A stretch of DNA of 64,000 nt from Eledone cirrhosa (lineage: Eukaryota), in assembly GCA_964016885.1 (NCBI GenBank), contig OZ024752.1, positions 14,260,001-14,324,000 on the forward strand, written 5' to 3'. The notes under the pieces are model-generated. The model did no database searches. It saw only the letters and a list, made by a program, of their open reading frames with translations, and was not told where the DNA came from. This document shows, piece after piece, positions 4,350 to 56,050 of this stretch. The translations under genes were made by a program, and so were the position numbers. Positions within the stretch are counted from its first letter, which is position 1. Each line of letters starts with the position of its first letter.

Positions 4350-4738
4350 CCTTTTAACTAAACTGTATCCATTCAAATCTTTCTATTTTTCTCCGGATTA
4401 CTTTTGGAACTACAACTGGAACCGTCGAGCAAACTCTACGTGAGCTGTCCATCTACTGTGTGTAATATTTATTTTACAACACTACGGAAAATACTGTATA
4501 TATATATATATATATGTACATATATATATATATATATATGTATATATATATATATATGTATATGTATATATATATATATATATATATATATATATATATA
4601 TATATATATATATATATATATATATATATATATATATATATATATATATATATATATTTATGTATATATATATATATATATATATATATATATATATATT
4701 TATGTATATATATATATATTTATGTATATATATATATA

Positions 4739-4810
4739 GTTTTGCGAGGTTTTTTATATGAAATCGTGTGTCGAAACAAATATTATTATACTTGGGGAGG
4801 GTCATATTTG
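4739..4810 (-). mobile_element. PLE tail fragment, same family as 1200-1353 and 50930-51012
   Basis: Reverse complement ATGACCCTCCCCAAGTATAATAATATTTGTTTCGACACACG...CGCAAAAC. Confidence 0.7.
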
Positions 4811-5703
4811 TGTAATATTGCCAGAATTAATAACAGAACACACTCACTGTTTGGTTGGTTTTCGCTTCTCGCTGTCTTTTATATCGGTAATCTAACTTAC
4901 TCGGTCCTCAATGTTGCTATTGACTGACCGACAGTCAAAAATAATACAGATACAATATAGACACAAACACATATATATAGTTTATCATAAATCTTTCGTT
5001 GCACATCTGCAACATCGTCAGTGGTGTTATATGTATGTCTACGCCATTTTTTATTCAGCCTGTCTATATATTTATTTATTTATTTGCTTGTTTGTTTATT
5101 TTATTTTGTCTTCTTTCCGCATGCGTTTGCGTGTGTGTATAGTGTTATGTTTGCTGTGTGATGGGTGACTAGTGTTTGTTTATGTGCTTGTTGTTATTGT
5201 GCTTGTGTATGTATTTATTTATCTTATTTTATTTACTTATTTATACTTCTCTTAGGTCAGTGTTGTTTGTTTGGGTGTTGTTGTTATTCCATTCATTCTT
5301 TGTTTAGTTTTGGTCTTCTAATTTCTATTTCACTGGCTACAATAACCTTTCAGCTTGGCACAAGCTAATGCCAGTGAACTAGAAATGGTGGTTTAAATGG
5401 TGGTTTAAAGTTTGTGAATCTAGTAGCTATTTTATGTCTACAGAAAACAGATTTTTCTATTTTGCTGTTAAGCAGCATCCCATTGTGCTTAAAATATGTA
5501 GTAGTTCCAAATTACAAAACCCGCAGTGGGACATACCGTTGCTGTAGGCTTTTGCTACCGATGATTTTGACCAGTTAATCTTATATTCTAGGTTTCTGTC
5601 TTTAAGCTGCCAGATTATTAAGAATACGTGGTACGTCCACAGACACTACATGAAGAACCGTGCACTGGAGACACTAGGATGCTCACCAATATAATCACAT
5701 CTA

Positions 5704-5928
5704 ATTTGGAACTTAAAAGACAACAATATAGACTATTCAATATCTTGGAGAACGATTTCGAATTCACCTGCATACCGAAATATGGCTTTATCAATATTCT
5801 GTAACTTGTGTATCGGAGAAATCTTTTATATAATTAACTGTGAAAACACTATTAAGCTTAGAACGGAATTATTTTCTTCTTGCAGACATCGCCAACATTC
5901 CACGTTCAGAACTATTTTTAATTTATAA
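5704..5928 (+). pseudogene. PLE GIY-YIG endonuclease C-terminal fragment (absent from ORF track)
   Basis: Hand translation IWNLKDNNIDYSISWRTISNSPAYRNMALSIFCNLCIGEIFYIINCENTIKLRTELFSSCRHRQHSTFRTIFNL*, colinear with the 3045 ORF. Confidence 0.85.
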
Positions 5929-7048
5929 TATTCCTATACACCTTCAAAATGATCCTATCTTTAAAAATTTAATTGTAAATTTCTTAAATTTTTAAATATT
6001 TTCAATATTTTTAATATTTTTAATTTTTCTAATTTTTTAAAATATCTCTAATATTTCTAATATTTTTACCTTTTCACATGAATGTTTTCAATATATATAT
6101 ATATATATATTTAATATTTTTAATTCTGACATTATTTTTCTCATGACACCCCTCGAAATATATTTTTTTAGATGTAGATTGATAATCTTTAATTGACATT
6201 CTGAACATTTATCCTCTTTACGATAGTTCTTCGAAAAGCACATCACGTTTTCCCTCTCTTTTTGTTATTCAAACATTCACACATCTTTCGACTAAAATAA
6301 TTAATCCCACATAAAATAATATATTATTTTTTCTATATATTTTTGAGTAATCACTCATCAAATTTAACGGTTAACAAACAAAATTGGAGTTATCTTTCCT
6401 TTCTCAATCGTGCAAACATAAACATAATATGTATGATAATCTATATAACTTCGCTAAATTAACAATATTCTGAAAACAGTTTCAATGTTGAACAAAATAC
6501 TCGAATCTACAAATTGTTCTCCTCTCACAACGTGAACCACCTATTTGCTTGTGTAAAATACAAAATCAACCGCCTTCATAACTCATATTAGAAATATAAA
6601 CAACTAATAATTGTAAATTATTTCTATCTCTATAATACTAATAATCTATATAGATATGTATATACATATAACCTATTGTTATGTAATAAGATAAAAATAC
6701 TCACAACCATAATTCTTCATATAATCTAATTGATTATATTTACAATAGGTAAATAAATTTAAATTTAAATAAATTTAAATTTAAATAAATTTAAATTTAA
6801 ATTTAAACTCTGGAATCATATTCCACTTTTGCCCCCAAATTAACGTAAATACAAGCTCTTCTTCCTTTTTCTTCTTTTCTACGCATACAAAAACATATCA
6901 TAATTATCTAAATTCTTCATAGCGTCTAAAATAACCTCATTTGCATACTCATCTTAACAATTTGAAATATCTAACTTTTCTTCTCTTATCCCTTCACTAT
7001 CCAAGGAAAACTTGAACCGTTAAGGTATTTTCCTTGGTTATGTCAAAA

Positions 7049-54245: not shown

Positions 54246-55559
54246 ATATAAATATATATATATATATATATATATATATATATATATATATTAATATAAA
54301 GTTAATCATATCTTTTATATTTTATTTCCTTTATACATTTTCATTGATTATTTTAGATATTAAAAATATGTTTGATTTTAATGAACAATACATTAGATCT
54401 AATATAATGTAATTCGAACTACAGTGAATCGGTGACTGAATCTAAATCTCATTAGATGTACACACTAACTCTTAGTAACCCATATTGTATTCCTTATTTG
54501 CAAATGGTTTTGATTTTTAGGCTTCAATAAAACAAATTTGGAATTCTCCTTAATTTCCTGAAATATATTTTGTACGTGATTTTTCTTTTCCGTTACAATA
54601 TTTTAATTTTGTCTGAAGCTGCTCAGTCTCCTGAATTAAATTTCAATTTGTTCATTGGTCGCTGATTATCGATTCTTTTGAAAATGAAATAGTCTTTTAT
54701 AATCATTCTGATCTGTCTCCGGCTTTGATGTTGGTATGAGGTGTTACCATTCATGAATATATTGATTGCTCTTTATATTAACTTTGACAGGCGTTGATTT
54801 CAATTCGTATCAATGATTCCGCCGAAATAATTCGCACCAATTCTATGCATTTTGTTTGTTGAAAACTTTAAAAGGGCCAAACTAAGTTAGTTTTGAATGT
54901 TTCTAAACTATGGTGCTGACGATATGGGATTTGCTGCTGGTTGGGATCGATTTGTTGCCATTTGTTAGTCAAAGTGATAGATGCGTGTTTGGATTTTATT
55001 TTTACTGGTCTAAAATATGGTTTTGATAGTCTAAACCTGTACTGTTAGTAAAAGTGATGGTTAAACCTAGACAACCGATATATGAATTTTAAGCAGATAA
55101 AAAAACAAATGATTACATCAACTTTATTCAATTTGCTTCAATATTTAATTTGAAACTTAATTTTCCCTGTAGTTCATTATACGTTCATATTAGATTGAGC
55201 GTAATTCGAGCTCACGTTAAAAAGTGGTGCTCACCTTTATCTAAATAAATTAAATATAAATGGCGTAGACTTTAAAATACAATGGGAGGAAACGTATTAG
55301 TTCCACTGATGATGTCGCACATGGGTGACGAAAGAACTTTGATAGACTATATATATATATATATGTTTGTATCTGTATGTTTAACCGTTGGTTAGTCAAT
55401 CATAAACATTAAGTGCCAAATAAATTATGTATGGAGATATAAAAGATACAGAAGTGAAAACCAGACCAAACCAAACAGTGAGTGTGTTCTGTTATTATTT
55501 CTGATAATATTATAACAATATGACCATCCCCAAGTATAGTATATATATATATAATAATA

Positions 55560-55747
55560 ATTGTTTCTACTTTAGGCACAAGGCCAGCAATTACCCAGTT
55601 CATTACTGGTACTTTATTTTATCGACCCCGTAAGGATGAAAGGCAAAGTCAACCTCGGCGGGATTTGAACTCAGATCGTAAAGGGACGTAACTATGCTGG
55701 AAAGCATGTTGTCCGACCCTCTACCGATACTGCCAATCCACCGCCCT
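55560..55747 (-). mobile_element. SINE family 1
   Basis: Near consensus; TSD TATAATAAT. Confidence 0.9.
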
Positions 55748-55749
55748 TT

Positions 55750-56050
55750 ATAATAATGATAATACAAGGACGAATGAGTACTCATTCATTATTCATTATA
55801 CTTATTGGTTAGTGACGCGCGTTTCGCTACTGATCAGCTCAAGGTTCGATCTGTATCGATTTGGCCCGACTCTAGAATCAAAAGCTCGTCGGACATCTAT
55901 GGTAGTAATGATAGAATGAATGAATAACCATTCGCCCTTGCTTTATTATATTACACTCTGTCTAAAGCTATAGCACGATAATGACTTGAACCTAAAAATC
56001 GAGTGCTCTCCTGGGTGAACCTTCAGTAACCTCGCCTTACATTCCCTGGA
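55750..56050. mobile_element. Diverged fold-back insert, HHR (CCGACGA core) on minus arm, right-side tail
   Basis: Reverse complement CCGACGA-GCT...AGC-GAAAC-GCGC-GTC; tail ACTCTGTC...TCGAGTGC. Confidence 0.68.

Follow-up and report, generated by a model that had tools for sequence, protein, structure and literature searches.

A short bulged stem, present twice in the 5' untranslated region (UTR), marks both ends of Penelope-like elements (PLEs) of the Hydra clade in Eledone cirrhosa, as found in a 64,000-nt stretch of contig OZ024752.1 (positions 14,260,001 to 14,324,000; the window) and in further DNA of this 3-Gb, AT-rich animal genome. The motif measures about 15 nt; it opens with (G/A)CUC and a Y-R pair, continues through a variable loop and a U-led bulge of 2 nt, and closes with GAG(C/U), often followed by ACU. 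Both copies lie between a putative hammerhead and the start codon, and the order is hammerhead, UA, stem 1, tail, UA, stem 2, ATG. Insertions end on (TA)n just before stem 1 (short ends) or just before stem 2 (long ends). A search of the full-text literature, which mostly does not cover subscription papers, found no published description of the motif, and it is taken to be a genuine, conserved cis element, apparently not described before, of a clade that is itself known.

Self-comparison of the window revealed many inverted repeats with (TA)n flanks. Family F1 (Table 1) has near-identical copies genome-wide, some with a 773-aa protein encoded as one open reading frame (ORF) that joins a telomerase-related reverse transcriptase (RT) to a GIY-YIG endonuclease. 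This architecture, as well as pseudo-long terminal repeats (pLTRs) that are tandem or inverted with an optional tail, is that of endonuclease-containing (EN+) PLEs. According to the available part of Craig et al. (2021, PMC8557442), the Hydra clade of C-terminal EN+ PLEs has RWK, DKT in place of DKG, a CxCx5C linker, no CCHH, a CxxC after the GIY-YIG core, a (TA)n target, a hammerhead in the pLTR, and a tandem plus inverted layout with a one-sided tail. The 773-aa F1 protein carries RWK at 37, DKT at 121, CxCx5C at 631 and one CxxC at 729, and lacks a cysteine pair between the GIY and YIG equivalents, i.e. CCHH. Because RWK, DKT and CxCx5C are present and CCHH is absent, and by likeness to the published alignment, the F1 elements are classed as predicted members of the Hydra clade. 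The modeled F1 protein (pLDDT 90.1) has TERT as its top Foldseek matches with weak likeness (TM-score about 0.3), and a Pfam search of the F1 endonuclease fragment assigned no family. In at least four Hydra-clade families, full-length ORFs are found in dozens of near-identical copies (open frames of 713-821 aa), which points to recent or ongoing activity.

To collect tails independently of the motif, inverted insertions that abut (TA)n on one side and are extended by a tail on the other were gathered from an unselected sample made up of the window and 119 stretches of 10 kb (1.254 Mb). This gave 152 insertions in 44 clusters, among which clusters 25, 29, 31, 38 and 39 look like detection artefacts yet were counted. 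CTC followed by GAG, with CTC at most 22 nt from the junction, was present in 21 of 44 cluster representatives, compared with 2.97 +/- 1.66 (maximum 8) in 300 dinucleotide shuffles; 20 of the 44 clusters, some of them artefacts, are without the motif. AT-rich trimers equal CTC in raw counts, as expected for AT-rich tails, and the dinucleotide shuffle is therefore the relevant control. A 2-nt 3' bulge with at least two upper pairs was found in 16 of the 44 clusters but in 0.6 of the shuffled ones, whereas the alternative forms with a 5' bulge or without a bulge were found in five and three.

The structure was assessed in the 20 families that qualified when the first GAG after CTC was taken with structure ignored. 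The first upper pair forms in 17 of 20 families with the 2-nt bulge register, compared with 2-7 in other registers, and the first bulge base is U in 16. Against permutations that ignore relatedness, upper pairs 1 and 3 are in excess at p<0.001, and pair 2 is at p=0.03. In two further clusters, 26 and 27, both bases of the third pair are exchanged to give T-A. Watson-Crick pairing at the fourth lower position is found in 14 of 20 families (A-T in eight, G-C in six; p=0.001, again by permutation that ignores relatedness), which bears out an originally predicted covariation between ACTC/GAGT and GCTC/GAGC. That prediction, made from the window alone, had described a plain CTC-Nx-GAG stem; the stem is real, but the 2-nt 3' bulge and the upper helix had been left out, and judging from these sequences the true unit appears to be the bulged stem rather than CTC..GAG alone. 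Some copies of the second stem are capped by UUCG or GNRA loops, which have an RNA-specific stability. Three other readings of the motif were rejected. No donor consensus was seen by eye that would make GAGT or GAGC a splice site, the hammerhead core lies 70-104 nt upstream so that the motif is not a hammerhead stem, and a kissing duplex formed by a self-complementary 3' strand would contain two A-C mismatches in its commonest form.

The positions of the ends relative to the stems are sharply defined. Among 45 F1 arm ends, 21 are short, 19 are long, five belong to read-through copies, and none falls elsewhere. In the read-through copies the tail is 5' UTR, and a second bulged stem lies beyond the long end, directly before the ATG. 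By eye, such a second stem is clear in nine of the 13 families with a read-through copy (0, 1, 5, 8, 12, 13, 14, 15 and 35), partial in 20 and 27, and not seen in 4 and 6; the low-complexity clusters 17 and 38 were excluded from this comparison and from that of endonuclease linkage, and the family comparison found no read-through copy of the tandem family at 7723. When the complete 5' UTRs of seven families served as references, the 1.254 Mb yielded 194 copies; the reference families had been discovered in this same DNA, but the scoring windows followed from the stems, and pairs of two like ends would have entered the count. As many as 166 copies abut (TA)n, the target of the Hydra clade, and 165 of these ends lie 0-16 nt before a stem: 79 before stem 1, 67 of them at 7-11 nt, and 86 before stem 2, 76 of them at 7-12 nt, with one end elsewhere. 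The 3' junctions in this sample show no broad scatter relative to the motif, and the tail end bears its own motif copy at equal distance, which had not been foreseen. Of 57 divergent neighbors, 56 combine a short and a long end, one is short-short and none is long-long. Loose (TA)n ends were also present in contigs of run X1 at both expected places, 2215 and 2330 of locus L012 (8 of the 21 loose ends listed); the run may be the source sample and was not treated as independent.

Conservation was examined in homologs. A protein search gave 298 homologs, and an alignment of 67 led to 78 metagenome loci, 30 of which were dropped because the N-terminus was absent or less than 90 nt lay upstream; the 48 kept fall into 38 clusters that share less than 80% identity. 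Under the strict descriptor, at least one copy is present in 27 of these clusters and at least two in six. When one upper pair is required, the numbers rise to 35 and 25, compared with 0-1 in four ORF controls and with six and none on the reverse strand. Among 73 anchors picked on the lower stem only, pairing is found in 62 with the 2-nt register and in 3-20 with other registers; the bulge U and the preceding purine are each found in 66, and the 3' strand extension has A in 57, C in 62 and U in 60. The stems are 55-83 nt apart, and stem 2 precedes the first ATG by 9-49 nt. On a 24-protein tree, both bases of the pair preceding the bulge change at least five times, between C-G and U-A, and an alignment of 10 rows shows covariation at three upper pairs (0 of 500 shuffles). 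The covariation rows came from a span-13 set of 20, minus one false anchor and two duplicates, and a span-16 set of nine plus one window row. TA begins exactly 7 nt before the C in 31 of 57 homolog motifs (4.9 expected) and lies within -12..-4 of the motif in 57 of 60 (random 31). Eleven homolog contigs run past the element end, and nine of them stop 1-13 nt before the motif, the other two at 66 and 87 nt. A hammerhead-core pattern precedes stem 1 by 70-104 nt in 18 of 25 homolog clusters. Such patterns, obtained by regular expression, are also found in several families of this genome and are putative, being a sequence pattern alone; an Rfam scan gave nothing above the gathering threshold among the matches listed (150 of 170), which were mostly microRNA models on repeats. 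In the six Hydra consensi available from PMC8557442, the full motif is visible by eye in Hydra-2_Amil (coral) and Hydra-2_Ajap (sea cucumber) and twice in Hydra-1_Ajap (sea cucumber), a variant is present in Hydra-1_Crog (copepod), and the motif was not seen in Hydra-1_Amil and Hydra-1_Obim.

The motif is confined to one clade. All motif-bearing clusters with a consistently linked endonuclease (5, 6, 7, 8, 12, 13, 14, 33 and 42) are Hydra-type, and clusters 0, 1 and 15 are Hydra-type by their N-termini. The claim that the stem marks the integration end across unrelated families was therefore wrong, as every family with a linked ORF is Hydra-type. Clusters 2, 19 and 34 are linked to other endonuclease types and have short and long ends alike, with the motif absent; the ORF of about 1280 aa of cluster 2, with a Cx4Cx2C linker, is of Neptune or Nematis type by the definition in the available part of PMC8557442. 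A covariance model gave 16 matches in 43 kb of Hydra loci, weak ones and one at L258 near a training row included, and none in 75 kb of non-Hydra loci, which rules out a universal PLE signal. Nor is the motif a general PLE signal, because non-Hydra elements form the same two ends without it and it was not seen by eye in the region used by the Poseidon PAc protein. It seems, from its distribution among these sequences, to be a Hydra-clade feature shared by descent.

Three groups of elements without the motif were observed alongside. A very young non-Hydra PLE family (L156-L165; window 152-1399, minus strand) has ORFs of about 1280 aa, short and long ends 60 nt apart, and the hexamer ATATCG after both ends, possibly a different repeated start signal. 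Clusters 9, 25 and 36 (e.g. L066:3075-3139, minus strand) represent a high-copy family with a tail of about 60 nt and a different hairpin with CTC on either side; for cluster 9, the upstream parts of 78 copies yielded no endonuclease. Clusters 17, 18 and 21 (e.g. L055, L064) lack the motif, target (TA)n, and have successive ends as well as an octamer-like ATGCAAAT box.

The original prediction held that the RT is positioned for internal initiation by an element located 3' of a UA-rich priming site. This is the best-supported reading, with the bulged stem instead of CTC..GAG as the unit. Each stem copy probably acts as an RNA site that binds the element's RT and sets it on the UA located some 7 nt upstream. 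Probably as a dimer, the RT-endonuclease would load onto both stems of a read-through RNA and cut the (TA)n target; each cut target end would pair with one UA and prime its own complementary DNA (cDNA), and the two cDNAs would join head to head, often at a palindrome. The outcome would be inverted ends with a tail on one side alone, whose length equals the spacing of the stems. The mixed pairs of short and long ends would be explained because both cut ends would prime in one event, at stem 1 and stem 2, and two coupled priming events would therefore give the one-sided tail and the inverted ends. In cluster 0 the fold-back center lies 44-61 nt upstream of the short end in 23 of 28 insertions. 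By eye, these centers (compare window 27116-27228) fall in a self-complementary or palindromic loop just 5' of the putative hammerhead cleavage site, and the two cDNA ends could anneal there. Some copies have a 5' end right at a stem, such as a tail-only inversion that halts at stem 1 (L011:2339-2444), and L282 and L286 have 5' junctions just before stem 1 or stem 2; bound stems may also halt the RT. A-rich or A-shifted stretches adjoin element ends, as in the poly-A run before stem 2 in L286 and at window 14971-15382.

Several observations weigh against this reading. As many as 28 of the 194 mapped copies do not abut (TA)n and were left unclassed, the TA-start offset differs by family between 7 and 13 nt before the C, and neither arm is consistently longer (7 versus 5). 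Folding of the families of this genome only gives the core a probability above 0.5 in 8 of 20, compared with 9 of 20 for the antisense strand; sense folding is no better in homologs (47 versus 48 of 60), and G-U pairs do not exceed A-C mismatches there (10 versus 10). The core pairs are nearly invariant and hence show almost no covariation, and the short-loop set alone, which is almost invariant, shows none (68 of 500 shuffles). Finally, non-Hydra elements produce both end classes without the motif, and the PAc region, in the available part of PMC11167929, does not show it by eye. Sense and antisense folding score alike, and as neither folding nor the G-U test shows a strand preference, the motif could conceivably act on single-stranded DNA or through the endonuclease.

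Such an action is the basis of one alternative, in which the motif on single-stranded DNA or on an integration intermediate guides the GIY-YIG domain to cut or resolve a few bases upstream, so that the ends are cut sites. It would agree with the lack of strand bias and with folding by DNA parameters, which favors the core about as well as RNA parameters (mean 0.42 versus 0.44). In the available parts of the respective papers, the tail is ascribed to endonuclease-mediated resolution (Craig et al. 2021, PMC8557442), and recognition of plasmid DNA by the endonuclease is reported to require the Penelope tail (Frangieh et al. 2024, PMC11167929). However, the ends share microhomology with (TA)n at the conserved TA, as priming would give, the PAc start sites mapped in vitro match genomic ends (available part of PMC11167929), and UUCG or GNRA loops cap some second copies; cut sites are for these reasons considered unlikely. 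The sharp ends could also be explained if the motif were an RNA 3'-end signal, with cleavage or termination just upstream and two RNA species copied by end-primed target-primed reverse transcription. Yet independent RNAs would yield short-short or long-long pairs about half the time, in place of the 56 mixed pairs among 57, and PAc initiates internally whatever 3' sequence is added (available part of PMC11167929), which makes an RNA 3'-end signal very unlikely.

Pure fold-back palindromes make up 68 of 111 insertions of motif-bearing families, and self-priming has been proposed for Penelope palindromes (available part of PMC3846280). Both would fit a single priming at the tail end, after which the cDNA folds back and copies itself while stem 1 merely stops the second pass. 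A single fold-back is nevertheless insufficient, because in 7 of 12 resolved insertions (12 of 43 could be resolved) the arm without the tail exceeds the tailed one in length and contains sequence that the latter lacks; the two stem copies are moreover alike in form and offset, and we regard this account as very unlikely as well. The least probable alternative is that the stems do other work, such as translational autoregulation or ribonucleoprotein packaging by the start codon, and that TA microhomology alone sets the ends. Stem 2 is indeed close to the first ATG, and protein binding could serve both jobs, but all ends except one of 166 fall just before a stem despite many other TA sites within 30 nt and across the arm, and the TA is kept at a fixed distance across taxa.

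The motif sites of the window and the F1 features are collected in Table 1. At all 13 sites of the original prediction, CTC was found at the place named (within 1 nt) with GAG(T/C) downstream, so the list was real, although it overlooked the minus-strand copies and the second copy past the tail end. The upper helix is weak at some of these sites, with no pair at 7160 and one each at 42484 and 55955. Tail-less arms had been said to stop about 2-10 nt before the motif. Short-end copies were found for 11 of the 13 sites in the main comparison; 44347 has as partner only an older copy of 77% identity, and for 55955 none was found. The gap agrees with the data, as the commonest offset from TA start to C of 7-12 nt minus the usual TA microhomology of 2-5 nt gives about 2-10 nt. 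The pairs 8896/7713 and 9791/7151, said to end at the same offset, do so at 9 and 7, the latter on the 19240-type reference.

Table 1. Bulged-stem sites and F1 features in the window ("not in original list", absent from the original prediction).
Feature	Position	Strand	Remarks
Inverted Hydra-clade insertion, family F1	2024..4496	.	short end left (minus strand); right = arm 3959-4389 + tail 4390-4496
F1 C-terminal GIY-YIG endonuclease fragment	3045..3521	-	CxCx5C linker upstream; intact 773-aa copies elsewhere in genome
Motif copy 1	4390..4430	+	TC bulge, 3 upper pairs; opens 107-nt F1 tail (to 4496)
Motif copy 1, degenerate	7160..7180	+	lower stem and bulge retained, no upper pair
Motif copy 1	7723..7783	+	long loop; within tandem unit of about 590 nt
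Motif	8314..8374	+	in following tandem unit; third unit ends at short end (about 8899)
Motif copy 1	9933..9957	-	not in original list
Motif copy 1	15551..15569	+	
Motif copy 1	19240..19259	+	fold-back arms 18860-19240; hammerhead-core pattern 19134-19175
Motif copy 1	21114..21132	-	not in original list
Motif copy 1	27020..27044	+	TG bulge; hammerhead-core pattern 26916-26962
Motif copy 1	27234..27257	+	fold-back palindrome 27116-27228
Motif copy 1	31882..31950	+	long loop; not in original list
Motif copy 1	32327..32351	+	
Motif copy 1	38638..38661	-	not in original list
Motif	42484..42501	+	one upper pair; inverted partner ends 7 nt short of motif (42010); no close (TA)n behind
Motif copy 1	43986..44009	-	not in original list
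Motif copy 1	44347..44367	+	TA bulge
Motif copy 1	48047..48066	+	hammerhead-core pattern 47943-47983
Motif copy 1	54114..54194	+	65-nt insert; arms 52476-54112
Motif	55955..56004	+	one upper pair; short-end partner not found
Motif copy 1	59115..59195	-	not in original list
Motif copy 1	62376..62404	-	not in original list

The units of about 590 nt at 7248-8899 belong to head-to-tail arrays, also found in L054 and L066, that end in arm and tail and comprise up to seven or more units. No PLE ORF is linked to these arrays, which have a retrozyme-like non-autonomous form. The window further contains a dispersed repeat of about 190 nt, SINE-like by size, in many copies with one tandem triple (14414-14591, 18203-18776, 30099-30284, 44966-45183, 50357-50552, 51043-51276 and 55555-55749). 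Fragments at 27677-29200 (minus strand), 22325-25649, 35148-36264 and 58102-58812 may, judging from their motifs, be of a hAT-type transposase and of RTE/LINE-type RTs.

Among the marks of PLEs, which form the sister group of telomerase, none has gone unexplained for longer than the one-sided tail and the inverted pLTRs. Two internal start sites were mapped in one in vitro study, which in its available part gives no signal that sets them (PMC11167929); in the present data, both ends throughout a whole clade bear a twice-repeated motif of about 15 nt, from which tail length can be predicted. It offers a practical marker for annotating the ends of Hydra elements and, if the proposed mechanism is true, would be a defined RNA recognition element for a PLE RT, with a possible convergence with the bulge of the HIV transactivation response element (TAR), and a short portable tag directing retroinsertion. 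Because natural compensatory variants exist, the mechanism is testable by point mutation and spacing shifts. A more specific version, programmed twin priming, is put forward tentatively: a dimeric RT would dock on two TAR-like arginine-binding bulges of one RNA and start cDNA from each (TA)n end. On that view, and with the same reserve, a two-site RNA ruler retained in several animal phyla would have left the tail and inverted pLTRs as its direct footprint.

In the available part of Frangieh et al. (2024, PMC11167929), the Poseidon PAc protein, a predicted dimer, cuts and extends both target strands and uses two internal RNA start sites that bound the tail, as the two ends do in the Hydra elements. 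PAc, however, starts in an AC-rich stem-loop inside the ORF that is said to be non-homologous to the target, whereas in the Hydra elements a bulged stem recurs in the 5' UTR, one copy lying 3' of each site, and the sites show TA microhomology. For the published Hydra clade, the available part of PMC8557442 describes no 5' UTR stem, although the motif is visible, unremarked, in the consensus file, and the tails are 30-40 nt compared with about 60-170 nt here. Non-LTR retrozymes consist of tandem non-coding units, each with a type I hammerhead. The tandem family at 7248-8899 looks similar, but no hammerhead-core pattern lies within 260 nt of its junction, and most other motif families here have coding full-length copies.

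In HIV TAR, U23 forms a triple with A27-U38, an arginine contacts G26, and UU bulges are found in HIV-2 and SIV TAR (available parts of PMC6189040 and PMC6140463). The motif resembles the arginine sandwich of TAR and 7SK described there in having a paired purine, a U-led bulge of at least 2 nt, and then G-C, A-U and G-C pairs. It differs from TAR in that the strands are permuted, with the bulge on the 3' strand and the loop on the other side, and in its conserved 3' ACU extension. As a lead only, the U-N bulge and the G-C and A-U pairs might form a TAR-type U.A-U triple that binds an arginine, for which the conserved R37, R173 and R200 are candidates. In L1 twin priming, said to go back to Ostertag and Kazazian in 2001, both cut target ends reportedly prime on the RNA and an inversion results. 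There the second site is found by chance homology, whereas in Hydra elements a repeated cis element would set the two sites, and long, duplicated arms can occur on both sides. In telomerase RNA there are elements that position TERT on its template. The fold likeness of the F1 RT to TERT is weak (TM-score about 0.3) and the RNAs are likened by role alone, but here, too, a structured RNA beside the copied region would set where a TERT-related RT works.

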